Of a stretch of DNA of 64,000 nucleotides, positions 31,183 through 55,070 are shown in pieces. How positions within the stretch are numbered: the first letter of the stretch is position 1; every line of letters begins with the position of its first letter. This stretch comes from Ostreococcus lucimarinus (lineage: Eukaryota): the NCBI GenBank assembly GCA_000092065.1, contig CP000586.1. One strand, written 5' to 3'. The notes beneath the pieces are model-generated. The model was not told the origin of the DNA. It saw only the letters and a program-made list of their open reading frames with translations, and ran no database searches. The translations under genes and the position numbers were made by a program.

Positions 31183-31923
31183 TCAATCAAAGTGCGGCCG
31201 GCGAGGCGCCGCGCCGGCGGCGTTCTCCCCACCACCTCTATTACCGTTTCGGTACATCGCGCGCGTCTCTTGAAGCACGTTGCGACAAATCATCATATCT
31301 GCGACGAATATCGCAAACATCCCCGCCATCACGGGCACGCACAGCGTCAAGAACAAGATGGCCACGTTGCTCAGTCTCAAATCGCCGTGAAGGTACGCGT
31401 ACGCCTTCTCCCCGATCGCGGGCACCGCGTACAGCAAGCGCAAACCCTTCGAGAACCACACCGCGTGGAAGAATCCGCGTGCTTTCGTCTTTCTATAATC
31501 TTTCCTCGCGAAACTCACGATCGCCGCGACGCTTCGATCGCCGCTCTCGTACTCGTACATTTTCCCATTCTTGAACAGCGCGATGGTCGGGTACGCCTTG
31601 GCGCCTATGCGTTTCAACAGCAACCTATTCTTCGGCCCATCGACGCGACCGACGAAGAGCTCACCCTCGAGTTCGCGCGCCACCTCCCCCCACACCGGTG
31701 CCAACGCGACGCAATGTTTACACCACTCCGCGTACACCTTGACGAGCACCGGCGTCCCTCGTCCCACGACTTCGTCAAAGTTCGTCTCGCTCAGATCCAC
31801 CACCTCACCGTCCGGGCCGTGTCGATCAAACCGCGCCTTCGCCACCGCCGTCGCGTCTCCGCTCGCGCGCGTCCCTCGCGCGCCGAACCCGAGCAGACAC
31901 CCCGCGCACGTCAGCGCCATCAT
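31183..31923 (-). CDS. Thioredoxin-domain single-pass membrane protein (TMX/PDI-like, WCKHC active site), 246 aa
   Basis: Signal-like start MMALTCAGCLLGFGA. Thioredoxin fold with VKVYAEWCKHCVALAP. Later hydrophobic helix VAILFLTLCVPVMAGMFAIFV. ATGs at 31923/31920 confirmed. An alternative upstream ATG at 32052 would add an Arg-rich leader containing TVTTVTTVT. Confidence 0.7.
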   Translation of the reverse strand: MMALTCAGCLLGFGARGTRASGDATAVAKARFDRHGPDGEVVDLSETNFDEVVGRGTPVLVKVYAEWCKHCVALAPVWGEVARELEGELFVGRVDGPKNRLLLKRIGAKAYPTIALFKNGKMYEYESGDRSVAAIVSFARKDYRKTKARGFFHAVWFSKGLRLLYAVPAIGEKAYAYLHGDLRLSNVAILFLTLCVPVMAGMFAIFVADMMICRNVLQETRAMYRNGNRGGGENAAGAAPRRPHFD

Positions 31924-32434
31924 CGTCACCGTCGTCACCGTCGTCACCGTCCTCGCTCGCCGCGCGCGGTGCCGCCCCCTCGCGCCATCGCTCGCGCGTC
32001 CGAGGCCGTCTCGACGTCCGTCGCGCCGCGCCCGCGTCGCGCGCGCCGTCATTCCGCGCCGTCGAACGCCTCGCGCGCGCGCGCGAGTGCCACCGCGCGC
32101 GCGAACGGTGGCGCGACGACGCGCGAACGACGACACACGGACCACACCCGACGCCGCGTCGCGGATCGGATAAGGGCAAAATGACTTTTTCGTCGCGCGC
32201 TTTGAAGCGCTCGCGAACGCCATCAAATCCACGGTCGATGCCTCGATACGCGTAGATACGCCGCACTTTTCCGACGTGGCGCGACGTCGATTTCGGCGCG
32301 AAAACCGAGCGCGCGGCGCCGGGGGGGGGTCGCGGCAGAGCGCGACGACGACGCGCGCGCGATCGATCGACGCGACGCGCCGAGGGTGATCGAACGAAAA
32401 ACGTAGACGCGCGGCGACGCGCTCGACCGCCGCG

Positions 32435-33777
32435 ATGCTGATGAAACCCGCGCCGACGGTGGGGAACGCACCGCGCGCGGGCGATGGTGCCGCGCGCGGG
32501 AATTCACCGGCGAACGCGCGACAGGAGCGGAAGAAGGGTGCGCGCGCGCGATGCGAAGCGAAAGCGCGCGAGGGGATTATGTCGCGGCGTTCGCGCGACG
32601 CGCGGGCGACGCGCGGGCGTCGCGCGCGCGTCGCGGGCGCGCGGGATACGGGATACGTCGGCGCGCGCCGCGTCGGCGCGCCGCGTTGACTTAGCTTTTT
32701 GGATTTTTTTGGTGAAATTGAGATATTTCGCGTATTCGGGGTGCATTCGGGGGAATCGCGCCAGGGTGGCACCGCCCCGGATCGCGCGCGGAGATATTTT
32801 ATCCTGGAGACCCGGAGCGAGACTGACGACGAACGCGCTCGCGATGTCTAGGCGTGGCGTGGACGGAGGAGGAACATAAAAACTTTTTGATTGGGTTGCA
32901 AAAGCTCGGGAAAGGAGATTGGCGCGGGATCTCGCGACATTTCGTGACGACGAGGACGCCGACGCAGGTGGCGTCGCACGCGCAAAAATACTTCATCAGA
33001 CAAACCAACGTGAGCAAGCGTAAGCGACGCTCGAGCTTGTTTGACATCATCTCCACGCCGACGGATGATGGAGAAGGGATGACGATCGTGCACAGACCGG
33101 CGGCGAATAATAACGGAGTGGCGAGCAAGGCGACGACTGGCTCCAGCAAGGCGTCGAACGGCGTGCACAGGACGCACGGCGGCGTGCACAAGATGTCGCA
33201 AGTGTCCAGTCGAGCGTCCGCTCAAACGAACGTGTCGGTGGATCACAGTGCACATTATCATCACAACGCGGCGAACGGTAGCGCTTTGACGGCTTCGTTA
33301 TCGAACTTGGCGGATATGGCGGCGCGCGAGGCGCACTACGTGGCGTCGATTCCGCAGCACCAGAGCACGAGCACGAGCACGAGTCAGGCGATTAAGATCG
33401 ATGAGGAATCTCACAGATCGTTCCCTATGATGACTGCTGCATATCCAGGTCACTTCGCTGCACCCATGGCGGCGACACAGGCGCCAGTGTTTGATGCGTA
33501 CAACCAAGCCATGGCGCAATACATGTTGCAGTTGCAGTCGCTCGCAGCGCAACAAGGGGACGGAATGAGTCACATCAACCAAATCAATCAGATGAATCAA
33601 ATGGCGTGGATGGCGCAGCAAAATTTGGCTTACCAAATGGCGGCGCAAAACTACGCCGCAACTCCACTCTCGCCGCAGCAAAACGCCAACTTTTGCCGTC
33701 CGACGGCAATTTACGCGGCCAAGTCTATTGATGACAACGTCGGCGAGCAGCGTAATGCGGCCAGCGGAGGGGCCTAG
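32435..33777 (+). CDS. MYB-related transcription factor, KUA1/MYBH/MYBS3 type (SHAQKYF class); join(32435..32537,32852..33777), 342 aa
   Basis: [65 protein letters not shown] is a near-exact match to the plant KUA1/MYBS3 signature. The track ORF starts at GTG 32854 with an in-frame stop at 32824 and no ATG. The only upstream AG (32850-51) is an acceptor. Exon 1 (ATG 32435, [34 protein letters not shown]) ends AAGG|GTGCGC at 32537 and splices to give ..[14 protein letters not shown]. This is the same context (RERKKG.PWTEEEH) seen in plant homologs. The C-terminal half is Q/M/A-rich. Confidence 0.7.
32538..32851 (+). other. Predicted 314-nt intron of the MYB gene
   Basis: GT at 32538, AG at 32850-51. 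It contains an AT-rich tract (cttagctttttggatttttttggtgaaattgagatatttc) that is unusual for this genome. Phase-1 splicing joins the exon 1 ORF to the MYB domain. Confidence 0.6.
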
Positions 33778-33876
33778 ACGCTCATCAAGAAACTCAACAA
33801 GACAAGCATTCGAATGGATGCCCAGTGTACAACAGGCTCGCAGAACACAACCAGCAGAATAAAATAATGTACTGTA

Positions 33877-33904
33877 CTTTCAGCTTTCAGCTTTCAGCTT
33901 TCAG
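33877..33904. repeat. (CTTTCAG)4 heptanucleotide repeat in the presumed 3' UTR of the MYB gene
   Basis: ctttcagctttcagctttcagctttcag lies 100 nt past the MYB stop, next to an AT-rich stretch (aataaaataatgtactgtac). Confidence 0.85.
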
Positions 33905-34176
33905 CAGTCGGGTGACTTTTTCCCTCCATCTTTATCACCACCGGAATTACACGCGAGGATAATTCCATCGGTTTGTTGTAAGCTTAACCGCACAACGCCC
34001 GACTCCTAAACCGTACTTTTAATAAACATGTGTATCAGGTTGACATGACTCTGTGTACTAAAGTACTTGACTCGACATCCGATGTCGTCGAGACGAGGCG
34101 CGCGCGCGCAGCAGAAGTACAGAACGCGGCGTGTCTTTGCCACCGATACGAACGATAATAGCACGTAACAGTAGGT

Positions 34177-34782
34177 ATGACTCCAACATCTCTCGACGTG
34201 CGGCTACTCGTTCGCGAGTTCAAGTCGTTGAAGCGACGCGAAGCCGACGACCTGATACGCAACCTCAAGATGGTGGGTGACGACGTAACCAAATGGACGT
34301 TTGAGCTGCATACGTTTGACACGACGTGTCCTGGTGGCAAAATGCTTATGAAGGACTTGGGAAGACTCCAGAAACGTGGTTTGGATCACATCCTCATGGA
34401 GGCGAACATGACTGCGCACGGTGGGTCTTGGCCAACCGACCCACCCCTCTTGCGCGTCGTGAAGCCTCGGATGAAGCTCTATACCGGCCACGTGACAGCG
34501 GGCGGCTCGATTTGCAGCGAAATGCTGGTAAATACTGGAGGTTCGAACGGTTGGAATCCTCGGTTGTCGATGGAAGCGATCATCGAGACAATCAAGCTGA
34601 ACATGGTGGATTGCGAAGTCGTCGAGATCGAAACTCCGTACAATGGCAGGCAGCGTGCGGGGCCGCTCCGAATAGATTTGAAGGGCGAGTATTCGTACGA
34701 CTGCATGAATGAATACTCTGAATTCGCTGCAATGGCTGCTTTTGATCGCGCAGTTGCGCACCATCGTCGTCATGGCTGGTAA
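34177..34782 (+). CDS. Ubiquitin-conjugating enzyme E2, UBE2Q-like, 201 aa
   Basis: ATG at 34177 confirmed. UBC fold with PPLLRVVKPRMKLYTGHVTAGGSICSEMLVNTGGSNGW. The active-site Cys sits in a GG.IC context as in UBE2Q. The C-terminus ends HHRRHGW like UBE2Q (HEKNGW). Confidence 0.75.
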   Translation: MTPTSLDVRLLVREFKSLKRREADDLIRNLKMVGDDVTKWTFELHTFDTTCPGGKMLMKDLGRLQKRGLDHILMEANMTAHGGSWPTDPPLLRVVKPRMKLYTGHVTAGGSICSEMLVNTGGSNGWNPRLSMEAIIETIKLNMVDCEVVEIETPYNGRQRAGPLRIDLKGEYSYDCMNEYSEFAAMAAFDRAVAHHRRHGW

Positions 34783-40533: not shown

Positions 40534-43500
40534 TCAAGACGTCTTCGGACGCAGGGGCATCGCGCTGCCATCCGACGTTCGAGTAAACTCGAACAGCACG
40601 GCTGGAGAACGGTAGATACGGATGAGAAGCCAATAAAGACGCTCCTCGAGAACAAAATCTCTCACTTGACGCGCGCTGTAAATATCGCTGCACAGCGAGA
40701 TGAGACGGTGCGTTGATGGCAAATCGACGTGCTGGATGCTGCCGACGAGATTGTTGGTGAAGCCTCGAACGATGGACGCCAAAGTTAAGATGTAGACGAC
40801 GTACACGCCCGTCAGACCACCAACAAATTGACTGAACGTCGCAAAAACGCCGGTCGGTACTTCGGATGAGATCAACACGATCTCAGGACCGTTCTCAAAC
40901 GCACTGCAGGGTCGCCACCAATCCAAACTCTGTCGATTCTCTTCCGAGGCTGCGAGGGGAACGACGTATGTTCCGCAATCGACGGACCACCACGGTGAGG
41001 TCGTGTTGTACCCATTCAGGGCAAGCGTGCAACTTATACTTTGTTGACTCGAATAATTCGGCACGGGCGAACCTTTGCCGTGCAAGTGCCAAACTCGCGG
41101 GTAAATGTTTTCCAAGAAGACATTGTTTTGTTCGCCGTTGAGCACTCTGATAAGCGCGGCGGCTTCGTCTTCTGCAAAGGTGTAGTCGACGCCTTCTGAA
41201 TATAAAATAGGATTATCCAGCGGTAAATGACGTTTAAACATCCAACCCGTGGTTAGTTTTGCACCACTTGAGAGAGACTTCTTCAAAGCCTCGATAGAAG
41301 GTGGAGGGGGCGACCAGACGGTGTCGCTGTCTTTCGCCAAACACGCCTCCTGTATTTGTCCAGGCTTGTTTATCATTGGTATCGGTCCATCCGTGCGAAG
41401 AGTCGACCACGGCATCGTTTCAATCGTTTTTCTGAATCCGCCTTCAAAGATTGGATACTTGAAGGTGTTTTCTGCTCCAATCAAGCTCATGTTGAACCGA
41501 ATATCGTAGACTGGATTGATGTCGACTTGTGGGTTTGATGTGCTGAATACGAAGAACGGCACGACCAACAGACTGAAAATGATCGTAAAAAGACCACCAC
41601 CCTCGAGGAAAACTTTTTTCCACCATGGTTGGGGTTGACCGAACGGATGATACTTTCTATAAGTGTTATTCCGGACGTTGATTCTGAACAAGTCACGCGA
41701 GATGTTCTCAAGCTTCAACCAGTCGTAAAGATCCAGGGCGCTGTCCGTGCAAGCATATTCGAGCAACACGCGTAATTCGTACATGAACGGAATCGAAAAG
41801 TACGCCATGAAAGCTCCAAAAGAAATAATATCAGAACGCTGGAAGATCAAGCTGTTCGTGAATACTTCAGCTGGGAACCCACAGCGTATTTGTCGCGCTC
41901 CGAGAGTGAACGACAACGACTTAAGGAGGAAAAAGAATTGCAAATACGAGTGACGTGCCGTCGTGTTCTGGTGGAAAATCATCAACAAAAATCCAACAAA
42001 TCCAGCATACGTCAAGTAGTGGTAGAAAACTTTGGCAATCTTTGCTTTTTTCATGTAAATCACTCCATCAACGACGATGAGTACCAAGCAAATGAAGACG
42101 GATACGACGTAGTCAATTTTGAACAAACCTTGATAGTATGTCTCCACCAATGCCTCTGCATCTGAGTCCACCGTGTTTTGATAGCAAATCGCCACGAAGA
42201 ATGTTGCGAGGATGTCGAAACAAAGCGTCGCGGTGTAAAAGTCCTGACCTTCTTGGTGGAAACCACGAACAGACGTGAGGCCAAGCGGGGCTACATCTGA
42301 GCCGCCAGCAGCTTCTCTGAGTTGCATCGCCTCAAGCGCTTTACTCGCCTCCGCACTAGGACGAAGGACGGAAACTGGGGCTATAACGCGGAATATTGCG
42401 GCACGATGTCCCGGGCTCGTTCGTAGACTATCGGTGTCTACTTGCACAAACTCGAGCGTGTAGTACGAAAGCGGTAGTTTTGAGCCACCTTCAGAAATCG
42501 TCTGGTGATTAATGAGTGCGTCGTTCACTCGGGCGACAATTTCATCCCAATCTGGCTCTGCATCTTCCTGTGCGAGGACTGAAAGCGCTACGAATGACGG
42601 ACCATACTCAGCTTCCGGAGTTAAGATTCGTTGGAAGAAATTATCCATTTCTGCTAGCAATCCTCGAGAGACTTCGATGTGGAAAGGTGAAGACTCAGAA
42701 TCGTCTTGGCGCGCGAAATTCATTTCAAATTCCGCAAAATGGACATTTTTAAACCTGGAAAACAGGGCGTTCGCGGCGAACAAGTCGCCGTTATTGCCCT
42801 CGTCACGCTCTTCGCGACGATGAATTTCATCTCTTGGTGTTTGCTGAGCGCTGTGGTGCACCGTGATGGCGATGTATGCCATGAACGCACCAATCATGGA
42901 AGGGACAAACGCACTACTGGCATCCTGGATACCGAACACGACTCCCGTATGAGCGCAGGCGGTCATACCCGAGCATTGCAAAGAACAAGGAATAGTAACA
43001 ACGTACGCAACGGCGAGCGATAATTCGGCGTACAAGAGAATCAATCGCCAAAATCCGGCAGGCACCACTGGATACGTCATCAGTCCGTATGCGATGATTG
43101 ACGTGGGAAAGACGAGAGCAGCGATGGAGAAATCGATGGCAAAAGCCAGTATCATGAAAAAATAGCACATTGAATACCGGGGTGCTGTCAACCACGGCCA
43201 TGCTTTCAAAAAGGCGCCAAATAATAAGCCAATTGTGGAGCTGCGATCACCAAGCCAGGTATGAAGTAAGGCTGTCAAATCCTTCTTCGGGTCATCCACA
43301 CTCGTGCGCATCTTCAGCTCGTGATCACGGAGTTGCGCTGCTCGCAAGTCCTGCCTTTCGGCGTTGTCTTCGTCTTCTCTGATCCATTCTTCATTGTTCT
43401 CATCGTCATCGCTGTCTCTGACGCCACGCCGACGGCGGATTGTATCACTTGGTGGCTTGCGGTCGCCCGTCGGTTTGCGACGAGTGCCTCGACTTTCCAC

Positions 43501-46500
43501 AGCGAGAATCTCTCGAGACAGACTTGTGATTTCGTTCCTGATGTCCTCTACTCTTTGACGACGATTTTCTTTCTCGCTCACCTTGGTCAAACAAGTTGCC
43601 AAACTTTCATGAATCCATCCCCGCTTCAACGCATCGTCGACAATGCGCTCCGCTTCAATGGACTGGCGACGCATAATCATCGCGGCTTTGTATGTGGGCT
43701 GAGTGATGATGCTTCTCAACAAGTGAACGATGGCAAAAATGACCAAATCCGGTGAAAGTTGACCAGACTGCCATCCGAGCACCGTGGGAAGCTTGTAAAA
43801 TCCAAAGCCTTGAAGTAGCGAACATTCAGACTCAACAGATACGTACCAGTCACCTAGTAAGCCTTCAAGCGGAGCTTGGTAAAGGAGAATCGCGCCGATG
43901 ACGGATACGTTGTACAGTTGCAAAATTCTCAAGCCCATCAGACTGTCCATACTCAAAGAATCGCGCGTACGGAGAAAATAGAATGGCAAAATCAAATAGC
44001 CAACGTGCATGAGATCTCGCGAAAAAGTGCCAAAGAAAATCACCATGACCAATGCCCAGTCAACTGCGTATCGCAAGTAAAAGTATCGCATCCATTCAAG
44101 GATGGTCCAATTTGTACTTGCTTCCCAGGTAAGCGGTGCGAATAAGATGTCAAAGTACGACGTCTCCTGCGTTTCCGGCGGGAGCAAAGCAACTTGTGTC
44201 GGTGTTTGCCTCGGTACCATCGTGGCGATCAACTCTGAAATCATAGCTTCATCTAACTCCGCGCCTTCTGCTTGCGTCGCCTCTATCGTCATTCGCGCGC
44301 GCTCTTCCAGAGCTGCTAAAATGGCATCCATCCTCAGTTGGCAAGCGGCGATAAAGAAAGCGCTAAAATAGCCAAACAGCATCATTTTGCTGCATGGGTA
44401 AACGGCAAGCCACTGTCTAGTCTCTCGTGAAAGCCGCATTTGTTCGCTCGCAGTGGAGAGGAGTGCCCGTGCAAACGACGGCGATGGTGGAGGAGACGGC
44501 GGAACGTCATCCACGCGGTTTTGCACGATATCAATCGAGACAACGTACTGCCATAGGACTATCAAGGCGCAGATCGCCGTAGTAAAGCGCCATAAGAGCA
44601 AGCGGTCACGCGGCGTGGACCCAAGCTTACTGTTAATCAACTTGAAAGTTACCCCTAAGTAGACGAGAGACAGCATGTTTGTAGACGCGATTCCGACAAT
44701 CGCAAAGACTACGTACAACAAACCTGGCATGAGATTCGCCATCATGCCTTCAATCATTTCAGGAACGATGGAAAGGAGCATAATCATCTGTCCCAGATTC
44801 GTTTGTGCATTTTCTCTCACTCGCTTAGTGAATTCGCGACGTGCCTCATCGCTCGCCGCACTTTCGCCTTCATCCGCGATGTCGGACGTGCTCTCCGAGA
44901 TTTCAGACATTGCTTTGTCATCTAAGTCGTCCATTTCCTTGCTTGCATCGGTGTTTTCCGTTTTTCGTTGAACAAGCATCGCTCGTGCGTCGCGTTGCGG
45001 CCAGAAGAGGTGACAAGGTTCAGGAGAACATCCAGATTTCAACGCCGGTGGTAGTTTCCTCAACCAGAAGCGTGTCGCCTTGGTCAACTCAACGGAAAGT
45101 ATCACCAGCACCGGATAGCGAAGCATGGATTCATTCTCTGGTATGAAATCACTCGGCGATTCTGGCCACTTATGCGCACCCAAGAGAGTCAAAATACCCC
45201 AATGTTGTCCCGCTTGAGTGTATTGAATCTTATAGGCGTAATCGATGATGGCAGAAATGAGTGCAACTGTACCAACCAGTTCGGTGGGACCATCGCTCGT
45301 TTTCATCGACAACGTCGCTGCGATGAGTGCTGCGAGCATCAATAATCCGAGCAAATCTCGGCGCTCGAGACTAAACAAGATTGCACAGAGGGTAACGATT
45401 TTATTTGTGTGCAAAATGATGGCTCGCTTCACAAGTGGCAGAAAGCCAAGCTCGGTTGCGGCCAACGGCAGACTTCGTCTCGCATCCACTGCATTGCTCA
45501 TCGTGAGCAATCCAATCTCGTGGAAATATGTTACGACGAGGAGAGTGCTCGGTCCGATCAATTCAGCCATGAGCTTGCCTGGCTCGACATTTTGCGCCAA
45601 CCCTACCGCGTTTGAGAGGAACGCCTTGAACTCGGTGGAGAATCCAAAAATTTCGTCGAGCGGGAAAGCGCCAAAGGCGTAACGACTCGCGAGATTGAAT
45701 AAACAGAACAACAGAACAGCGCGCCATCGACCGGACTCGGTTTCTTCTGAGTGCCGTTTAGCGATGCAATTCAATCCAAGGAGTACGAGAAGTGTCAAGT
45801 TTATCAGCGAACACTGCGACGTTTCGAGCGTCACCAGACCAACCAAGAGCACTAAATAAGCGCCAAAGCGCGTCATCAACTTCATGAGCACCAACGAGCA
45901 CTCGTACACTACGGCTTTACCCAAAGACACCAATGAGTTCAAGGTTCCCTGGCCAGGCGCACTATCTTCCTCAGTTTCCGGCGTCAGCGCGTTAAGGACC
46001 TTCTGCAGGTACAGCACGATGCAAATTACCACCAAAACGCAGGCGAAAGGTCCAGTCGTGTGAATCATGTTTGATTGCTCAAGGCCTAAAACACGCAATG
46101 TCGTCGCCCACTTCGTGTGGTACACATTGAATATATTAACGTGTTCATTCATCGCCCACAGATACAACGCCGCAACAAAGCCAGCGAGTGTTTGTGCCGT
46201 CAGATGCAATACCGTCCGGTCTCCCGGTTTGAGGATATTGAACAAGAATGCCAATAGCAATGCGGCGTGGAGTAAATCGGCTCGCGATAGAGCCACAATC
46301 CACAGTGCGAAGGGCACCAAGAGGTGTGAGATCAACTGAACTAAAGGCAAATCCCACATCAAGCGACTGTCGTCGACGGCCGGGTTATGCTCAATCTCAA
46401 GGTCATCTAATGGTACAAAATCCACAATGACACCATCCTGCACTCTTTGTTCCAGAACGTCATCCGTCGGGGTACTCTTGGCGTTCTTTGTGAGCCAACC

Positions 46501-47652
46501 GACAAAGGTGAGCGTGGCTACTAAACTGCCCATATAACACGCGTTAATGCCCGATTGCTCGCCGTTGTGCGCTGGCGATGCACCGAATATTTGTAGCAAA
46601 ACTCTTACTTTGCCGTTCATGGATGACATCATCACTGGTGGAATGCAAAGCAGGGCGTACTCTCCAACGCTCCAAAGCGCGACGTAGGCGAAAATCACCG
46701 GACCGTGCACGTTCGCAAACGTCGTGTGACGCGTTGGGTTCACGACGAGAATCAATCCTAGCAAAAGCATGGGGTACGCAATTACGTTAACGACGAGTAA
46801 TGACGTCGCGAGTAACGTAAAGCCAGCCAAGACGCCGCCAAATCGAGCCAGCAAGCGGGCGACTGTTCCCGCGTCATCGTAGGTGTCCACGACGTCTGCA
46901 TCTGAAGCTGACTCCCCCTCCATCAAAGGCGCTCTAATACCTTCACCGTCTGCGGTATCGTAATCGCTGTCGTGTGACTCCACCGCACACAGCGCCATGA
47001 ATAGCCCGCCGATAGCGATGATTTGCGTCAAACGCAACAATCGCGCCACCGGCCCTTCCGTCCTATCCATCGAATACAACCCAAGCAACTGCGCCGAAGA
47101 CTCTCGCGCCGCGTCTTGCAACTCCGGTAACTGATACATGTAAATTGCCATGAAATGAATCGCGGTGTAGCACAAGCACGCCACCGTGGCCCTTCGCGGA
47201 AGATTTAATAAACTCTCGCGCGCACCTTGAAATTTGCCACCGACGCCGCGCCGCATCTCAGTTGCGAAATACGACACCACGAATAATAAATACATCATCG
47301 ACGACAGTGAAGGCACTGTCACCGCCGCTAACGCCGCCGTACACACCGTCACGCGCATCACCGTCTCCTTATCGCTCACTGTCGTCGCAAACGCCCCTTC
47401 CGCGTCGCCGCCGTCGAGCGCGCTCGCGCGCTCGCTCGCCCCATCCACGTACAGCTTACTTCCTCCCGCGAGCGCGATCCCGAAATAAGGCACAAAGAAC
47501 AGCACGTAGTCTATGATGCCATCCAATCTTCCGAACCCTAAATACCGCAGCGCGTCCGCTTGCCATGGATTCCTCGGCCACGCCGCTCCGAAACCGACGT
47601 AACACGCCTGCGTCGCGCAATTCCCCAACAGCACGAACGCACACAGCCCCAT
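40534..47652 (-). CDS. PIEZO: Piezo-type mechanosensitive ion channel homolog, 2372 aa from the first ATG
   Basis: Dozens of predicted transmembrane helices. The C-terminal region is collinear with the human Piezo1 pore/cap module (PFMYELRVLLEYACTDSALDLYDWLKLENI vs PFLFELRAVMDWVWTDTTLSL; C-terminus ..VRGFTNNLVGSIQHVDLPSTHRLISLCSDIYSARQVRDFVLEERLYWLLIRIYRSPAVLFEFTR vs [65 protein letters not shown]). The track start 47742 is TTG. The first ATG is at 47652. Confidence 0.85.
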   Translation of the reverse strand: MGLCAFVLLGNCATQACYVGFGAAWPRNPWQADALRYLGFGRLDGIIDYVLFFVPYFGIALAGGSKLYVDGASERASALDGGDAEGAFATTVSDKETVMRVTVCTAALAAVTVPSLSSMMYLLFVVSYFATEMRRGVGGKFQGARESLLNLPRRATVACLCYTAIHFMAIYMYQLPELQDAARESSAQLLGLYSMDRTEGPVARLLRLTQIIAIGGLFMALCAVESHDSDYDTADGEGIRAPLMEGESASDADVVDTYDDAGTVARLLARFGGVLAGFTLLATSLLVVNVIAYPMLLLGLILVVNPTRHTTFANVHGPVIFAYVALWSVGEYALLCIPPVMMSSMNGKVRVLLQIFGASPAHNGEQSGINACYMGSLVATLTFVGWLTKNAKSTPTDDVLEQRVQDGVIVDFVPLDDLEIEHNPAVDDSRLMWDLPLVQLISHLLVPFALWIVALSRADLLHAALLLAFLFNILKPGDRTVLHLTAQTLAGFVAALYLWAMNEHVNIFNVYHTKWATTLRVLGLEQSNMIHTTGPFACVLVVICIVLYLQKVLNALTPETEEDSAPGQGTLNSLVSLGKAVVYECSLVLMKLMTRFGAYLVLLVGLVTLETSQCSLINLTLLVLLGLNCIAKRHSEETESGRWRAVLLFCLFNLASRYAFGAFPLDEIFGFSTEFKAFLSNAVGLAQNVEPGKLMAELIGPSTLLVVTYFHEIGLLTMSNAVDARRSLPLAATELGFLPLVKRAIILHTNKIVTLCAILFSLERRDLLGLLMLAALIAATLSMKTSDGPTELVGTVALISAIIDYAYKIQYTQAGQHWGILTLLGAHKWPESPSDFIPENESMLRYPVLVILSVELTKATRFWLRKLPPALKSGCSPEPCHLFWPQRDARAMLVQRKTENTDASKEMDDLDDKAMSEISESTSDIADEGESAASDEARREFTKRVRENAQTNLGQMIMLLSIVPEMIEGMMANLMPGLLYVVFAIVGIASTNMLSLVYLGVTFKLINSKLGSTPRDRLLLWRFTTAICALIVLWQYVVSIDIVQNRVDDVPPSPPPSPSFARALLSTASEQMRLSRETRQWLAVYPCSKMMLFGYFSAFFIAACQLRMDAILAALEERARMTIEATQAEGAELDEAMISELIATMVPRQTPTQVALLPPETQETSYFDILFAPLTWEASTNWTILEWMRYFYLRYAVDWALVMVIFFGTFSRDLMHVGYLILPFYFLRTRDSLSMDSLMGLRILQLYNVSVIGAILLYQAPLEGLLGDWYVSVESECSLLQGFGFYKLPTVLGWQSGQLSPDLVIFAIVHLLRSIITQPTYKAAMIMRRQSIEAERIVDDALKRGWIHESLATCLTKVSEKENRRQRVEDIRNEITSLSREILAVESRGTRRKPTGDRKPPSDTIRRRRGVRDSDDDENNEEWIREDEDNAERQDLRAAQLRDHELKMRTSVDDPKKDLTALLHTWLGDRSSTIGLLFGAFLKAWPWLTAPRYSMCYFFMILAFAIDFSIAALVFPTSIIAYGLMTYPVVPAGFWRLILLYAELSLAVAYVVTIPCSLQCSGMTACAHTGVVFGIQDASSAFVPSMIGAFMAYIAITVHHSAQQTPRDEIHRREERDEGNNGDLFAANALFSRFKNVHFAEFEMNFARQDDSESSPFHIEVSRGLLAEMDNFFQRILTPEAEYGPSFVALSVLAQEDAEPDWDEIVARVNDALINHQTISEGGSKLPLSYYTLEFVQVDTDSLRTSPGHRAAIFRVIAPVSVLRPSAEASKALEAMQLREAAGGSDVAPLGLTSVRGFHQEGQDFYTATLCFDILATFFVAICYQNTVDSDAEALVETYYQGLFKIDYVVSVFICLVLIVVDGVIYMKKAKIAKVFYHYLTYAGFVGFLLMIFHQNTTARHSYLQFFFLLKSLSFTLGARQIRCGFPAEVFTNSLIFQRSDIISFGAFMAYFSIPFMYELRVLLEYACTDSALDLYDWLKLENISRDLFRINVRNNTYRKYHPFGQPQPWWKKVFLEGGGLFTIIFSLLVVPFFVFSTSNPQVDINPVYDIRFNMSLIGAENTFKYPIFEGGFRKTIETMPWSTLRTDGPIPMINKPGQIQEACLAKDSDTVWSPPPPSIEALKKSLSSGAKLTTGWMFKRHLPLDNPILYSEGVDYTFAEDEAAALIRVLNGEQNNVFLENIYPRVWHLHGKGSPVPNYSSQQSISCTLALNGYNTTSPWWSVDCGTYVVPLAASEENRQSLDWWRPCSAFENGPEIVLISSEVPTGVFATFSQFVGGLTGVYVVYILTLASIVRGFTNNLVGSIQHVDLPSTHRLISLCSDIYSARQVRDFVLEERLYWLLIRIYRSPAVLFEFTRTSDGSAMPLRPKTS

Positions 47653-47862
47653 CACCCCCCACCACACGTCTCTCTGCACCCGCGTCAGCGCGTGCGTATT
47701 CTTTCGTCCCTCGTGCACGCGTTCGATCGCGAACGCCGTCAAGAATCCAAAACTCTGTAATCGACATGGTGTTCACGATGATGGATTCGTCAGTCCGTCG
47801 TTTCGTCCGGTTTTCTCTCTCGCGCGCGCGTCGATTCGCGTCGGCGCGTCCACGCGCGCACC

Positions 47863-49329
47863 ATGATCGACGGTCGCTGTTCCGCGGCGTGTATGCTCAC
47901 GGCGACGACGAGCATGACGCTCGACATCGCCGCCATCGGGTCGACGCCCATGGCGCGTTGTGACGCGCTCGGCGCACACGCGCGCGCGCTCGACGGACAC
48001 GCGCCGTTCGCGCGCGGCGAAGCGGTCGACGCGAGGCGCGCGCCGATGCGCGCGTCGGCGTCGGCGGCGACGGCGGCGACGGCGCCGCGCGCGACCGCGA
48101 GGCGCGCGCGAATCGCGAACGCAAAGGCGCGCGGGACGACGACGACGACGCGCGCGTGCGTGAACTCGCCCGAGGGCGTGTTGGCGGCGCTGGTGTGCGT
48201 GGGGACGTGCGCGGGAGTGTTGGAGAAGCGCACGCGCGTCGGGGCGCGCGTGTCGGGGCCGGTGCTGGCGATGGCGAGCGCGAGCGCGCTGGCGAGCGCG
48301 AACGCGCTGCCGGGCGCGAGCGCGGCGTACGAGGCGGTGTGGACGACCGTCATGCCGAGTGGGGTGGTCTTAGCGTTGTTAGCGAGTGGGAAGGCGCTCG
48401 TGGGGAAGGGATGGACGGGGGCGGGTGAGGACGTGGCGAAGGCGTTCGTCGTCGGCGCGTGCGGCACCGTCGTCGGCACCGCGGCGGCGTTCGCGGCGTG
48501 CGGACGCGCACTCGGTACGCACGGAGCGAAGATCGCGGGGTGTTTGTGCGCGAGCTACATCGGTGGCAGCTTGAATTTTGCGGCGACGGCGCAGGCGTTG
48601 GACGTGGTGAACGCGGGAGGGAAGGCACTGTTGACTGGCGCGATGGCGGCGGACAATCTCGCGATGTGCGCGTATCTTGCGGCGCTCTTCGCAATTAAGA
48701 CTTCGGGGCCGAGTGAGGAAGAAAGATCGAGGGAGGTTGAGAGCGGCGAACGAGTTTTGAGTGGTGTCACGGCGGCGTCCGCATGCGCATCGCTCGCGAT
48801 GGCGTTGATTGTTTTGGAATTGTCGCGTCTCGTCGCCGCCGGATTCGGCGCGCCCAGTTTATCGCTGGGCGTCGCGTGCGTTTTGGCGCCCATCGTCTCG
48901 ATTTCGGCGAGCACGATCGCTCGGACGTCAAAATCTGAATCAAGGAATTTATCCAGTATTTTGGCGTTTTCTGGATCGCAACCGATGAGCGAGGCGCTCA
49001 TGCTCTTGTTTTTCGCTACGCTCGGCGCCATGGTGGATTTGCGCACAATTTTTGCGACGCTCTCGGGCGGCGCTATGTTGCCATTCATCGCGATTCTTCT
49101 CACAACACAACTTGTGTTCACTCTGCTTGTCGGTCACAAGTTATTGAAGATCCCATTGTGGGCCGTGCTCGTCGCGGCGAACGCGAATGTGGGCGGACCA
49201 GCGACCGCCGCAGCGATGGCCGCAGCGCGCGGATGGCGTCAAGCCTTTGCACCGGCGGTGGCCACGGGGATATTCGGTTATTCGATCGCGACTTTGATCG
49301 GCGTCGCGATAGGAATTTTTTTAGCGTAG
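47863..49329 (+). CDS. Polytopic membrane protein with a transit-peptide-like N-terminus (possibly DUF819/YjcL-like), 488 aa
   Basis: ATG at 47863 confirmed. After ~110 aa of Ala/Arg/Thr-rich leader there are about 10 hydrophobic helices. The DUF819 assignment is from memory and is tentative. Confidence 0.55.
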   Translation: MIDGRCSAACMLTATTSMTLDIAAIGSTPMARCDALGAHARALDGHAPFARGEAVDARRAPMRASASAATAATAPRATARRARIANAKARGTTTTTRACVNSPEGVLAALVCVGTCAGVLEKRTRVGARVSGPVLAMASASALASANALPGASAAYEAVWTTVMPSGVVLALLASGKALVGKGWTGAGEDVAKAFVVGACGTVVGTAAAFAACGRALGTHGAKIAGCLCASYIGGSLNFAATAQALDVVNAGGKALLTGAMAADNLAMCAYLAALFAIKTSGPSEEERSREVESGERVLSGVTAASACASLAMALIVLELSRLVAAGFGAPSLSLGVACVLAPIVSISASTIARTSKSESRNLSSILAFSGSQPMSEALMLLFFATLGAMVDLRTIFATLSGGAMLPFIAILLTTQLVFTLLVGHKLLKIPLWAVLVAANANVGGPATAAAMAAARGWRQAFAPAVATGIFGYSIATLIGVAIGIFLA

Positions 49330-49401: not shown

Positions 49402-52400
49402 TTACGCCGTCAGCGCGGCGCGCTCCGCCTCGACTGCGGCATTACTCTCTTGCTGTTGAAGCTGCGCGAGTTGGTTGGCGCCAACCTTGAATGCGCCCGG
49501 ATTGATCGCCACTGTCTTCGTGGTGTTGTTGGTCTTGTAAATACCGACCAATCTATCCGCGAGCTCGAACATGTTATTGCGCAGAGAAATGATCACAAAC
49601 TGAGCGTTTTTCGTTCGCTCCTTGATGTAATGTCCGACGATGGAAACGTTCTTGAAATCCAACGCAGCGTCAATTTCGTCCATGACATACAACGGTGTGG
49701 GCTTGTAGTGATGCAAAGCAAACACCAATGCGAGCGATGAGAGCGTCTTCTCACCACCGGATAAATTGGCGATGTTCTTCCAGCTCTTCTTCGGCGGGCG
49801 CACGCTGAAAACAATGCCCTCGGAGAAGGGATCGAGCGAATCTACCAGCTCAAGTTCGGCATCACCACCGAGAGTGATCATTTGATACATCTCTTTGAGT
49901 TTGAGCGAGATAATATTGAAACCATCCATGAACTCGTTGAGTCGTTTTTGTCGTAGCTTGTCGTACGCTTCACGAGTGTTATCACGCTCCTCCGTCGCCG
50001 CGCTCAACTCAGCGGCGCGCTCTTCGTACTCCTCCGCTTTCTTCGCGTACGCTTCGATAGATGACATGTCAGGCTTTGCAGCCGCGAGTTCTTCTTCTAA
50101 AATCACCGCCTTTTCTTGCATCTCGTCCGTCGTATGTTGCTCGAGCTCTTCGTCGTTCAAGAGTTCAGGCACTTCACCCTCCGCGTAAAGCGACGTGCGC
50201 TCCTTCGTCACCTTGTTGATTTCTTTATTCCAGTGCTTTTCCTTGTCTTTATTCTCCTTCTGGACGACGCTGAGGTCGTCTAATTTCGCTTGAATATCAA
50301 CTTCAACGCCTCGGATGGTGCCGACAATTTTCATTATTTCATCGAACGCTTTCTGTGCCTCGGAGAACTCGCCACTCTTCACTTCAAGGAGCTGCTTAAG
50401 TTCGCCTTGCGATTCGAGTACGGCGGCGGCGCCGTCTTCAAGTGCCTTGAATTCAGCCTCGTGATTCTGCATATTAGCCTTAATTTGCTCAACTTCGGCT
50501 TGATTGGCTTCGATTCCCTTGGAGAGACGAGCGGTCGTCCCTTCGTGAGACTTGGCCTTGGCGCGCTTCTCGGTGACGGCGTCAGACGCTGCAGCGATGC
50601 CGGCGGTGAGATCCTTGACTAACGCTCGCTGCCTTTTCAAGCCATCACCGCCAACGTTATCCATCTTTTGTTGCAACTTGGCTTCCTTCTGTTTAAGAGC
50701 GGCTGCACCCGCCGTGACTTCATCCAACACAACCTTGGCCTTTTCAACTTCTTTGTCGAGTCTCTTGAGCTCGTCCGCGTCGTTCTTACTCGCGTCATGC
50801 GCCGCTTCGAGTTCAACCAAACGAGTGGACAAATCAGCAGCCTTGGCTTCGGCTGCGTCAAATTCAGCCTTCAACTTGGGAATCATGCGTTCGATTTTGT
50901 TGACGATCGCCTCTGCATCGCGAGCCTCCTGGAGAGATTTGAGCGCCACCTGACGCGAGCGTTCGTAGAGTTTTCCAGCTTGTTCAAGCTCCACCTCTGC
51001 CATTTTAATCTCTTTCGCCACTTCGGCGGCATCGGTAATCACTGGTGCTTGATTTCCAACGCGCATTCTACCGGTACGCGGCTTGGAACCGCCACCACTC
51101 AACGTACCGCTGGTCTCAAACAGTTGACCCTGAATGGTAACCACTCGACGGCGCTTCTCGCCGTGAGCCAGGCGCGAAGCTTGTTCGAGATCTTGAGCCA
51201 CTAAAGTATCACGAACTCCGAAGTAGAAAGCGACCGCAAAGCGTTCTTCCGCGGGTTTGATCAAATCGATCAGGCGCGGCGCGTTGTCCGGGTTGGAAAC
51301 CTTTTCGTTCATCTTAGAAAGAAGATGCTTCTGTCTGTCGAGGGCAAGAAAGTTGCCCCGACCGAGGTTGTGCTTCCGAAGGTACGACACACAAAGCTGC
51401 GCATCGGACGTGGTTTCAACCAAGATGTGATCAAGAGGTCCACATGCAGTCGACACCGCGACATCATATTCTTTGTCAATAGCCCCAAGATCACCGAGAC
51501 GACCGAGAACACCCTTGAGCGCGCCAGCGGCTTGAGCGTCAAGCAACGCTTGCACCATCGCATTCTGACTCTTCTCCGTCTCGGCCGTCGAACGACGTTG
51601 TTCGAGCTTACCACGAATCTCACGAGTCTCAGCTTGCGCAGCGGCTTCTTTTTCTTTCGCATCGGCTTCCATTACTCGAGCCTTATCGGCGCGCGCGCGC
51701 TCTGTCTCCAACGTCGCTTCCTCTTCGCCGATGGTTTTCTTCAACTCGATAGCCTTCACGCGTGCCTCCTTTTGACCCTCACGTGCCGCGTTCAAAGACT
51801 TTTCTGCATCAGCGTGTTTTTCAAGGAGAAGGGCTCGCTCAGACGTAGCGACGTTGAACGCCCCCTGAGCCGCGGCGAGCTTACCTTCCCACGGCGCCAA
51901 ATCCTTTTGCGCTTGGTCGAGTTCGCGGCCCACCGCTGCGAACTCATCTTGCAAGCTAGCGACGAGAGCATCCAAAGCAGCCTCTTCTTTGTCGATTCTT
52001 GCCTCGAGATCTGCCTTTTTTGCTTCCAAAACGGGCACTTCTTTCTCAATCGCCGCGCATTCCGCCGCCATTTTCTGCTGCTTTTCCGTGTCCGTGGCAA
52101 TTTTCGTGTTGAGTTTCTTCACCGACGCCTTCATGTTTTTCAACTCCTCTCGATACTTGGCATCCTTCAGCTCGAAGTCGGCAAAGTCTTTCACACTCTT
52201 GTCGAAATCAGCTTGAATCTTGGACAATTCGTCAGCAATTTCGCCCTTACGGCCCTCTGCAGCCTTCAACGCGTCCTCGTGCTCGGAGTGTTTCGCGCGC
52301 TCTTCTTCGAGCTTTTGCGTGAGCGCATCCTTGTTTTCTTGAATCTTGACCAAGTTGGTTTGCGTCTCTTTGATGAATAGTTGGTACATCGTCGATCGCG

Positions 52401-53384
52401 TAGACAAGAGCTCTTTTTCTTTCTCTAAGAACGCCTCCGCCTCCGCCTTGACGATGGCGAGCGCATCCTTCTCACCCTCGACTAACTTCAATCGGTTTAC
52501 CATGACATCGCGCTGCTCGTTCAACTCCTCCAACTTCTTGCTCGCCTCTTCGATGGGCTCGACGTATTGCAAAGTACCGATGATGTCTTCCAAGTATTCC
52601 AATAAGCCTTCATCGCCCGGCGCCGCCCCTTTCGGCTTCATCATGGAAATTTGTTCAACTTCCCCTTGCAAGATGAGGAAACGGTTGTTGTTTAAATCCA
52701 CATCCTTCGACTTTAACAACTTTGTCACCTCTGTGAACGAGCTCGTCTTATCGTTCACGAAGTATTTGCTCGAGTTATTCCTGTACGCCTCGCGAGAGAT
52801 GACGAAATCCGAGTTCGGCACGATATCGTATCCTTCTTCGTCGTCCACGTGATCGATGATTTCGTGAAAGTGCACCTCCACACGCGCGTGCTCCAAATTT
52901 CTGAAATCTGTAGAGTTGTGAATCAACTCGCTCACCTTATTCAATCGCAACTGTTTCGCTCGTTTACCGAACACAAACATCATCGCGTCGATCACGTTCG
53001 ACTTCCCGCTCCCATTCGGGCCGACGACGGATGAAAAACTCTGCTCGAGCGAGTCGCGCGCGGCGCGTCAGTCCCCCGTCGTCGCGACGCGCGAACCAGT
53101 CAAATCGAACTCGAGCGCGTCGACATCCGCGCCCTCGCGCGCGTCCGAGCGCGCACCTTATGAAACGGTCCCACGTGTTGCGCCCCCGCGTAGGATTTAA
53201 AATTCTCCAGCACCATCTTCTTGATCGCCAATCGCGGTTTCCGCGCTCGTCGCTTCGCGTCCTCGTCGTCCTCGCGATGTCGTTCCCGTTCGTCCGTCTC
53301 CGTCGCCGTCGCGTCCTCGCGCGCGCGCGCGTCGCTCGCGGGCGCGTCATCGTCGCATTCGCGCGCGCCGTCTTCCGCCGTCAT
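49402..53384 (-). CDS. SMC4: Structural maintenance of chromosomes protein 4 (condensin SMC4); join(49402..53040,53157..53384) on the minus strand, ~1288 aa
   Basis: Exon 2 is collinear with SMC4 (VVGPNGSGKSNVIDAMMFVFGKRAKQLRLNKVSELIHNS.., long coiled coils, hinge, C-terminal LSGGEKTLSSLALVFALHHYKPTPLYVMDEIDAALD). The track ORF starts at an internal GTG (Val). The conserved N-terminal strand KMVLENFKSYAGAQHVGPFHK lies in a separate upstream ORF (53100..54173) and ends AAG|GTGCGC at 53157. The acceptor ..GAGCAG| at 53041 gives ..PFHK|SFSSVVGPNGSGKS, restoring the canonical Walker A context. The start ATG is at 53384 (MTAEDGARECDDD.., an acidic leader). Confidence 0.8.
53041..53156 (-). other. 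Predicted 116-nt intron of SMC4 (GTGCGC...CAG), phase 0, immediately before the P-loop
   Basis: The donor GT (53156/53155) follows the K codon 53159-53157. The acceptor AG is at 53042/53041. Exon 2 then begins at 53040 with AGT (Ser). All positions were checked base by base. Confidence 0.7.
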
Positions 53385-53389
53385 CGCGC

Positions 53390-53394
<5 letters not shown>

Positions 53395-53427
<33 letters not shown>
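53395..53427. repeat. (CGT)11 trinucleotide repeat in the shared SMC4 / MT-A70 promoter and 5' UTR region
   Basis: The cgtcgtcgt... run lies immediately upstream of the SMC4 ATG (53384) on the minus strand, where it reads (ACG)n. Confidence 0.9.
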
Positions 53428-53430
<3 letters not shown>

Positions 53431-53729
53431 GGTGTGTCATCCGTCGCCCGACCAACGACCGTTCCGTTCCCCTCTGTCGATGGCGCACGTGTCGCGCGGA
53501 ATACGGGGTTTCGTACTTTTTTTTTTGAAAATTCAAACGCCGTCGACAGGTGCGTCGATCGCGCGGCGCGCGCACTTGGACGCGCGCGCGCGCGGACGAG
53601 GCGACGGACGAGCGACGCGCGGTGCGGTGCGCGAGACGGACGCGCGCGCGAGCGAACGAACGCGGCGGGAACCGCGCTCGAAGACGCGGGAAGACGCGCC
53701 AGCGGTCGAGGCGTCGACAGCGCGCGACG

Positions 53730-55070
53730 ATGGCGAACGAGGACGGCGATGTCGCCGCGGGGAGCCGGCCGAAGCGCAAGGCGAGCGCATCGTTGCGAGC
53801 GCGGACGTCGCGAGGGAAACAAGCGCCGTCGAGCGCGCACTACGTGGGATACGTGCAAGACGACGAGACGCCAGAGATGATTATGAAAAAGTTTGAAGAG
53901 ATGGAACGGATTCGACAAGCCACCAAGGCGCAAGTCGGTGAGGATGGTGATAAGGAGAACAAGGAAGGCGCGACAAACGGTGCGGGTGGAGACGCGGTCG
54001 GGACCAACGGCGACGAGCACGAAGGGTTGGACGAGGAACAGTTGAAGGAGTTGTTCAAAAATACGTCTACGTTTACGGTGAAGGAGGCCGTGATGGATTC
54101 TAACGCGCTTTTCGGTGATATGAGGATCGCGAACGAAGATGGGATGTATTTCTCGGACGATGAAGAGTTGCAAGATGAATTCTGGGAGGCGCTGACCGGT
54201 AAGAAGCGTAGAGGTAAGAAATCCAAGGGGCCGAGAGTGCCGAGAGCGCCGAGAGCGCCGCGCGAACCAAAGGCGGCGCAGTCACACATGATCACCGCGT
54301 ACAATAGCGACCAAGGCTTGTTCTTGCGCAAGAAGAAGTTTGTTGATCCTTTCGAGCCTGTCATCATCAAGGTCCCGGCGCACCCGATTCCAGTGAGCTA
54401 TGGACGAGTAATTCAGCCGTACGAACCAAAATCGGTGCGAGAGGCGAAACTGAAACAAGTTCCCGATTGCGTGCACATGCAAACGAACATCAAGAAGATG
54501 GAATATGAATCGCTCGGTAAGGACTATTTAGGTGTGCTCATGAACCCGCCGTGGGATATTGAAGATTCCCCAGATCGCGGCGACGTGACGTTGGAGGACA
54601 TCGAAGCCATTCCGCTTGAAAAACTCACGCCACTCGGTTTCATCTTTATTTGGGTTGAGAAGGAAAATTTGTCCAAGGTTTGCGACATCATGGACCGAAA
54701 GAACTTTGTCTACGTAGAGAACTTGACGTGGGTACAACTCAAGCCGAACAACACGATCGTTGAGTCCTCTGCGCGCTATCTTGGTCGCTCGCACAGAACA
54801 ATGCTCATCTTCAGACGAGACGTTCGCGACAAGCGCTTCATTGAAGGGAAGAAGATTGAGTTGCGACACCAACGTAACTCGGATGTGACTCTCGATATTG
54901 TGCAGACCACGAAAACTGGTCGACGTGTTGTCCCTGAGCACGTGTACAAGTCCATCGAAACTCTTTTACCGACGGCGTACGAACCTGGAACGCCTGGTAA
55001 GCTCCTCGAATTGTGGGCCGAACCGGGCGCGCGACGCGCGGGTTGGACTTCCGTGGCGGATACTCCTTAG
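53730..55070 (+). CDS. MT-A70-family N6-adenine methyltransferase-like protein (NPPW catalytic motif), 446 aa
   Basis: GVLMNPPWDIED...LTPLGFIFIWVEKENL..CDIMDRKNFVYVENLTWVQLKPNN..GRSHRTMLIFRR is collinear with the MT-A70 catalytic domain (DPPW..[31 protein letters not shown]). There is no CCCH zinc-finger region. The track start 53550 is GTG. The first ATG is at 53730 (MANEDGDVAAG). Confidence 0.75.
   Translation: MANEDGDVAAGSRPKRKASASLRARTSRGKQAPSSAHYVGYVQDDETPEMIMKKFEEMERIRQATKAQVGEDGDKENKEGATNGAGGDAVGTNGDEHEGLDEEQLKELFKNTSTFTVKEAVMDSNALFGDMRIANEDGMYFSDDEELQDEFWEALTGKKRRGKKSKGPRVPRAPRAPREPKAAQSHMITAYNSDQGLFLRKKKFVDPFEPVIIKVPAHPIPVSYGRVIQPYEPKSVREAKLKQVPDCVHMQTNIKKMEYESLGKDYLGVLMNPPWDIEDSPDRGDVTLEDIEAIPLEKLTPLGFIFIWVEKENLSKVCDIMDRKNFVYVENLTWVQLKPNNTIVESSARYLGRSHRTMLIFRRDVRDKRFIEGKKIELRHQRNSDVTLDIVQTTKTGRRVVPEHVYKSIETLLPTAYEPGTPGKLLELWAEPGARRAGWTSVADTP

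Follow-up and report, generated by a model that had tools for sequence, protein, structure and literature searches.

The closest described relatives of the gene reported here are KUA1/MYBH of Arabidopsis (At5g47390), MYBS3 of rice and MYB1R1 of potato, a subgroup of MYB-related proteins that bind I-box/TATCCA-type DNA and regulate transcription. A second described system is that of the clock MYBs CCA1/LHY/RVE (the CCA1-TOC1 oscillator of Ostreococcus), which resemble the present protein in that their single MYB repeat contains a SHAQKYF helix. In the TOC1 promoters of Mamiellales, O. lucimarinus included, CCA1 binds the evening element AAAATATCT (PMC12704426, Table 1; PMC3130137). The introns of O. 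lucimarinus have also been described: EST-confirmed introns outside chromosome 2 have an unusual 5' splice site, GTGCGTG, and the extended branch site GACTGACG is present in 66.5% of these introns (Irimia & Roy 2008, PMC2483917), while the median intron length in this species is 111 nt (PMC2483917, Table 2).

We analysed one stretch of 64 kb of O. lucimarinus CCE9901 DNA, which is called the window below, and we conclude with very high confidence that it contains an ordinary two-exon nuclear gene for a 342-residue single-repeat SHAQKYF-class MYB-related transcription factor. Its corrected coding sequence is join(32435..32537, 32852..33777), and the reading frame is kept across the junction. 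The features of the gene, and the coding sequence that is annotated at present, are as follows.

32337..32434, plus strand: 5' UTR of about 98 nt, with a probable start near 32337 from adaptor-bearing contigs
32435..32537, plus strand: coding part of exon 1, 103 nt (34 codons and 1 base), joined to exon 2 in 8 of 8 cDNA-type contigs
32538..32851, plus strand: intron of 314 nt, phase 1, GT-AG, missing from contigs L012-L019
32538..32544, plus strand: 5' splice site GTGCGCG, matching the consensus GTGCGTG at 6 of 7 positions and differing at +6, in the context aagg/GTGCGC
32821..32828, plus strand: branch-site motif GACTGACG, an exact consensus, also present in lineages L001 and L008 and in O. 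tauri
32850..32851, plus strand: 3' splice site AG in the context tctAG/gc, confirmed by cDNA
32852..33777, plus strand: coding part of exon 2, from the open reading frame and cDNA, ending in a TAG stop
33778..34048, plus strand: 3' UTR of 271 nt, with the poly(A) site at 34048 and AATAAA about 20 nt upstream of it
33079..33777, plus strand: annotated coding sequence ABO96471.1/XP_001418178.1/A4RYK2 (P0243), a 232-aa 'predicted protein', 5'-truncated

The original prediction, made from the sequence, had pointed out that the open reading frame with the MYB domain lacks an ATG and is preceded by a stop 30 nt upstream, and this description is exact. According to both the sequence reading and the ORF listing, the frame (32854..33777, 307 codons) opens at a GTG; an in-frame TGA at 32824 lies 30 nt upstream of it, and the first in-frame ATG downstream of this TGA is found only at 33079, past the MYB domain. 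Between the TGA and the GTG there is a single AG, at 32850-51; it had been taken as the acceptor of a 314-nt intron preceded by an ATG exon at 32435..32537, and it is the one used in cDNA. Transcripts spanning the junction 32537/32852 had been named as a check of that model, and the contigs described in the next paragraph agree with it.

The exact 342-aa spliced protein was found in a public protein collection, on contigs of 1606 nt or less only. We collected eight cDNA-type contigs (L012-L019) from three ENA analyses and five Logan/SRA runs, which we judge to be cDNA by the absence of the intron and by their poly(A) tails and adaptors. The contigs derive from environmental or unidentified samples, for which an origin from strain CCE9901 is not demonstrable, and they match the window over about 1.4 kb, with 100% identity in the exon-2 block and 99–100% in the exon-1 block. 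All eight align as two blocks, one from 32300, 32322 or 32333 to 32538 and the other from 32851 to 34048 (to about 34120 in two contigs). The 2-nt overlap of the blocks corresponds to the G's flanking the junction, and among the three possible cuts only 32537/32852 gives GT..AG. Every contig reads cggaagaagg/GCGTGGCGTGG at this point (aagg/GCGTGG). These data show that the 314-nt phase-1 GT-AG intron at 32538..32851 is removed from the mRNA.

The same contigs delimit the mRNA, whose length is about 1.4 kb. Poly(A) is present at the end of six contigs and in four of these directly follows 34048, after GTTGACATGA, which shows that 34048 is a 3' end of the mRNA; L017 stops at 34039 and L018 at 34047. 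On the 5' side, the ENA contigs start at 32300 or 32322, and the five Logan contigs carry an adaptor ending in AACGCAGAGTACGGG, which we take to be a SMART-type template-switch adaptor, followed by AGAGCGCGACG (also given as AGAGCGCG), i.e. the window from 32337 onward. Because such an adaptor directly precedes 32337, a capped 5' end should lie near this position, and transcription presumably starts there. Translation most probably starts at the ATG at 32435, the mRNA's first AUG, which has an in-frame stop upstream of it at 32387. No other ATG was found in the transcript upstream of 32435 (32300..32434), and we accordingly rejected other 5' exons and upstream ATGs as candidates, since the sequence between the cDNA 5' ends (32300-32337) and 32435 has no ATG and contains the stop at 32387. 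The start of exon 1, ML.KP, is also present in O. tauri, whose exon 1 begins ML.KP.P and ends ARTERKKG. An open reading frame of 529 aa on the minus strand (31183..32772), overlapping exon 1 and the intron, was rejected as an artefact of GC-rich sequence.

Judged from its motifs, the intron is shown to bear the strict splicing signals of its own species. In addition to the GT..AG ends and the removal from mRNA, it has a donor of the GTGCGTG type (6 of 7) and the branch site, as the introns outside chromosome 2 do. The branch A is presumably the one at 32826, which leaves 25 nt to the 3' splice site, and the in-frame TGA stop (32824-26) sits within the branch motif. Taken separately, these motifs are not enriched in the window: GACTGACG was found 6 times vs 4.3 expected, and the donor GGTGCGYG 14 times vs 12.4 expected. 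When the two are taken together, three of the six GACTGACG sites are preceded on their own strand by a GGTGCGYG donor no more than 400 nt away (binomial p = 0.0015); the splice motifs are informative only as an ordered pair, not each alone. The overall GC content of the intron is 67%. A noncoding RNA hosted in the intron, e.g. a snoRNA, was also considered and rejected, as an Rfam search at E <= 1 over 31900..34300 gave nothing, and the intron did not fold better than its shuffled versions (z = -1.63; 9 of 100 shuffles as good).

Syntenic loci could be examined in five further lineages, four of which include the upstream region (loci L010 and L025-27 belong to O. tauri). All four have an ATG exon whose last residues are (E/D)RKKG and which stops at a phase-1 GT; in each, an AG stands directly before G(C/A) GTG GCG TGG.

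L001, 92% protein identity: exon 1 of 103 nt, intron of 307 nt
L027, O. tauri: exon 1 of 100 nt, intron of 322 nt, TERKKG/GTGCGTG
L004, about 60% identity: exon 1 of 88 nt, intron of 519 nt, IERKKG/GTGCGTA
L006, about 58% identity: exon 1 of 163 nt, intron of 167 nt, DRKKG/GTACGA

Alignment with orthologues had been proposed as a further check on the two-exon model, and it is satisfied by O. tauri, the 92% relative and the two relatives of about 58-60%, which share the exon-1 end, the phase and the acceptor. The introns of L004 (519 nt) and L006 (167 nt) are themselves confirmed by cDNA contigs, which encode spliced products of 325 and 358 aa, respectively. The conserved junction is more than a chance occurrence, because eight contigs carry it and the layout is kept in four other lineages. 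In O. tauri, the annotation (GCA_002158475.1, KZ155774.1, L027 2196..3543, 341-aa Myb protein) equals our two-exon model; since both the annotated range and the product match the spliced form, the structure has already been annotated in the sister species, which distinguishes the O. tauri gene, correctly annotated, from that of O. lucimarinus. The two loci agree in synteny, with a thioredoxin-like gene upstream and E2-Q-like, EMC4 and UBC9 genes downstream, in the two-exon layout and phase, and in having GGACTGACG about 30 nt before the intron AG; they differ in that protein identity is only about 55% outside the MYB domain, and in that the O. tauri intron lacks AAATATCT and has GGTTATCCA instead. 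As a separate observation, the neighbouring thioredoxin-like gene encodes about 246-254 aa in relatives and probably begins at the ATG at 31923.

At the junction, splicing joins G to GC to form the codon of Gly35 and fuses the basic arm ERKKG of exon 1 to VAWTEEEH of exon 2, so that the intron splits the N-terminal edge of the MYB domain. The spliced product was expected to recreate the RERKKG context of plant proteins, and it does so in the form QERKKG/VAWTEEEH. The protein matches PF00249 (E = 9e-12, 45.3 bits against a cut-off of 24.4; residues 37-82) and TIGR01557 myb_SHAQKYF (62.3 bits against a cut-off of 29.3; residues 33-85, profile positions 1-57 of 57), and because the latter match starts at residue 33, the domain model begins in exon 1; residues 33-85 correspond to 32531-32537 plus 32852-33003. 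A literal SHAQKYF is found in the third helix (residues 76-82, 32974..32994), and a C-terminal RPTA motif at 33697-33708, whose P318 and A320 are invariant in our alignment. In the same alignment, RKKG, W, E, E, H ... RKRR.SLFD are invariant among Ostreococcus, Cymbomonas, Mesostigma, Physcomitrium, Elaeis and Arabidopsis. Among solved structures, PDB 6NVZ ('Myb family DNA-binding protein SHAQKYF family') comes nearest in sequence (E = 2.8e-9), with an alignment running from KK..WT..EH through SHAQKYF, although only the domain of about 55 residues is covered and the identity is moderate.

By domain, flanks and named matches, this SHAQKYF-class MYB stands nearest to KUA1/MYBS3/MYB1R1; this placement is made by alignment and named matches, not by a tree, and does not imply orthology to one plant gene. 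The named relatives among the best 120 matches listed are KUA1, MYBS3, MYB1R1 and one MYBS3 labelled 'DIVARICATA'. With the three plant proteins it has in common a near-identical MYB domain with the flanks RERKKG.(P/A)WTEEEH and (K/R)RKRRSSLFD, and also the C-terminal (K/R)PTA, written (K/R)P(T/Q)A for the subgroup. It differs from them in lacking the CCHC zinc knuckle (CSHCGHNGHNSRTC) at the N terminus, the motifs LFGVRL and DGY.S, and LSLKL (EAR-like) and SAFH at the C terminus, where it ends soon after RPTAIYAAK, and in having a Q/N/M-rich region specific to Mamiellales. As exon 1 contributes no more than 34 residues, no CxxC..H..C precedes the MYB domain; the Cymbomonas (P0025) and Mesostigma (P0105) proteins have no knuckle either. 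The description as KUA1/MYBS3-type in the original prediction thus holds for the MYB domain, its flanks and the position and phase of the intron, and does not extend to the CCHC knuckle and the C-terminal LSLKL/SAFH. On the basis of family membership only, the protein would bind DNA via its SHAQKYF recognition helix and regulate transcription, like KUA1 and MYBS3. The clock MYBs CCA1/LHY/RVE bind AAAATATCT, copies of which occur in the intron of this gene (PMC12704426, Table 1), but no such name appears among the best 120 matches listed. Because the flanks are of the KUA1/MYBS3 type and CCA1/LHY/RVE are absent from these matches, the gene is a possible target of a clock MYB, not a clock MYB itself.

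For the position of the intron in plants, we reconstructed the gene structure of the Arabidopsis KUA1 locus (At5g47390; L028) from its protein. KUA1 exon 1 is 283 nt long and its first intron, aaag/GTATCT..TTGTAG/gaactccatgg, lies at phase 1 in the Gly codon of RERKKG/TPW; the counterpart in the window, aagg/GTGCGC..TCTAG/gcgtggcgtgg, follows 103 nt of exon-1 coding sequence at phase 1 in the same Gly codon. KUA1 has a second intron, which has no counterpart in the Ostreococcus gene. Because codon and phase are identical, the intron is probably ancient and probably comes from the common ancestor of chlorophytes and streptophytes, shared ancestry being the simplest reading. That plants and Mamiellales each gained an intron here in parallel is less probable, but keeps some probability because AAG/G is a classical proto-splice site.

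The intron contains further elements that may be concerned with regulation.

32685..32737, plus strand: AT-rich tract, 30% GC or less per 40 nt, with a minimum of 25%
32721..32728, minus strand: evening-element core AAATATCT, antisense to the gene; a similarly placed GAAATCGGAGATATTT is found in the 59% lineage L003
32792..32800, minus strand: full 9-mer evening element AAAATATCT, antisense to the gene and abutting TATCC, kept in L001 and L008

The tract had been noticed beforehand as unusually AT-rich; it is real, but it is not unique, being one of 29 segments with 30% GC or less in the 64-kb window. Compared with the 92% relative, its identity is 53/56 vs 181/228 for the flanking intron sequence (Fisher p = 0.006), while four-fold degenerate sites are 94.5% identical and the whole intron 83.8%. 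The tract is recognisable also in the 88% lineage L008. Concerning the evening elements, AAAATATCT occurs twice in the window vs 0.12 expected, the window has three AAATATCT sites, of which two, one of them in the full AAAATATCT, are inside this intron, and in 108 kb of orthologous loci five of the eight sites are in the 2.5 kb belonging to this intron, all five antisense to the gene; since three of the lineages are closely related, these five cannot be counted as separate events, and the motif was picked out post hoc, so that the counts serve only as a lead. TATCCA and I-box motifs near the gene are about as frequent as chance predicts. Taken together, the conserved AT-rich block and the evening elements suggest that the intron may contain a clock-responsive element. 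More tentatively, and with more doubt than belief on our side, the ancient intron may have been kept in this intron-poor genome as a cis-regulatory module, in which the AT-rich block and the antisense evening elements (32721, 32792) would allow CCA1, or this MYB itself, to time expression.

Plant clock MYB genes often show regulated intron retention, and among the alternatives to the two-exon gene as such, the one that survives best accepts the splice and adds a substantial regulatory isoform retaining the intron, which would encode an 84-aa peptide (32435..32689) without the MYB domain. The length of the intron (314 nt, above the median of 111 nt for this species; PMC2483917, Table 2), the block conserved above its flanks and the evening-element motifs can be counted in its favour. 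We nevertheless consider such an isoform quite unlikely, as the near-consensus splice signals argue for efficient splicing, and no unspliced cDNA contig was present among those retrieved, the search having been made by the spliced protein only.

The two-exon gene disagrees with the O. lucimarinus reference. The annotated 232-aa protein equals residues 111-342 of the spliced product, and therefore its coding sequence is 33079..33777; since this start is an internal ATG, the whole MYB DNA-binding domain is missed, and no NCBIfam family matches the annotated protein. That the reference is right, with a product translated from 33079 and the upstream MYB-like frame left untranslated, is highly improbable, even though GenBank, RefSeq, UniProt and EukProt use this model and an analogous truncated call of 231 aa (P0254) exists in a related lineage: the ATG at 33079 is not the first AUG of the spliced mRNA, in which the in-frame codons of Met1 and Met3 precede it; no part of the gene is better conserved than the MYB region, which stays invariant all the way from Ostreococcus to Arabidopsis, and this is unexpected of untranslated sequence; and the O. 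tauri annotation has two exons. The weakest alternative, an unspliced transcript translated from the GTG at 32854 or another non-AUG codon, is hardly credible, because, although metagenome pipelines call the 307-aa GTG-start frame on many genomic contigs (P0001, P0240), 32538..32851 is missing from 8/8 cDNA contigs, the ERKKG arm of exon 1 is kept across lineages and completes the TIGR01557 profile, and the in-frame stop 30 nt upstream lies in a branch-site motif. Elsewhere in the window, the TCP1-delta protein at 1941..3521 corresponds to ABO96462.1/XP_001418169.1.

The reference model of O. lucimarinus is wrong, and replacing it with the two-exon model is a routine gene-model correction, which leaves current understanding unchanged. 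The 232-aa form is carried by GenBank, RefSeq, UniProt (A4RYK2) and EukProt; since it has no domain, inventories and comparative studies that use this proteome miss one SHAQKYF MYB. Prokaryote-style gene calling on picoeukaryote contigs has additionally produced hundreds of GTG-start or truncated versions of the protein. The intron position common to KUA1 provides a small, clean case of an intron that a genome very poor in introns has probably retained from before chlorophytes and streptophytes separated. If the intron were indeed a cis-regulatory module timed by the clock, the gene would be an output that the minimal CCA1-TOC1 oscillator of Mamiellales controls directly, through an intron.

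The MYB gene, whose coding sequence joins exons 32435..32537 and 32852..33777, is present in public metagenome gene calls in many wrong forms (protein clusters P0001, P0008 and P0007). These comprise GTG-start proteins of 295-307 aa, truncated proteins of 231-232 aa and proteins with N-termini produced by reading through the intron, such as MCFCLDVG.., MRVRYLG.. and ..CFLVIAG.., whose final residues preceding VAW are the translated acceptor AG. An ORF of the opposite strand overlaps the gene:

31183-32772, minus strand: ORF of 529 aa, overlapping MYB exon 1 and the intron

We rejected this ORF as a real gene at its full length: it is an over-extension in GC-rich sequence. The thioredoxin-domain protein of relatives has 246-254 aa. 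The true start of the thioredoxin-domain gene is probably the ATG at 31923. With that start, the gene would lie next to the MYB gene in divergent orientation, at a distance of about 410 nt from where MYB transcription begins.

The evening-element core AAATATCT occurs at three sites in the window, two of which lie inside the MYB intron:

32721-32728, minus strand: core, MYB intron
32792-32800, minus strand: core as the full 9-mer, MYB intron
34867-34875, minus strand: third core, next-but-one gene region from the MYB gene

By chance, a window would be expected to hold 0.56 copies of the 8-mer and 0.12 copies of the 9-mer. Two close relatives keep the intronic 9-mer, and a site resembling the intronic element was found in the 59% lineage.

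Two other candidate introns were found on the minus strand:

47755-47861, minus strand: candidate intron of 107 nt, splice signals like those of the MYB intron
about 53041-53156, minus strand: candidate intron of 113-116 nt, with donor, GACTGACG and AG

In the former, the donor (atcATG|GTGCGCG) stands immediately 3' of an ATG, GACTGACG is at 47795-47788 and the acceptor cAG at 47756-55; the flanking ORFs are 47790..48479 and 40534..47742, the latter Piezo-like (2402 aa). The other has the donor aag|GTGCGCG, GACTGACG at positions 53073-53066 and two alternative acceptors, the AG at 53045-44 and the one at 53042-41; its removal would join the minus-strand ORFs 53100..54173 and 49402..52995.

Within the 3' UTR of the MYB mRNA, CTTTCAG is repeated four times in tandem (33877-33904, plus strand). 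In the lineage of the syntenic locus L004, the spliced, cDNA-type contigs L020, L021 and L022 continue across the downstream E2-Q-like gene into the next, convergent gene, a pattern suggestive of transcripts that read through or overlap, or of contigs merged during assembly, in these very compact genomes.
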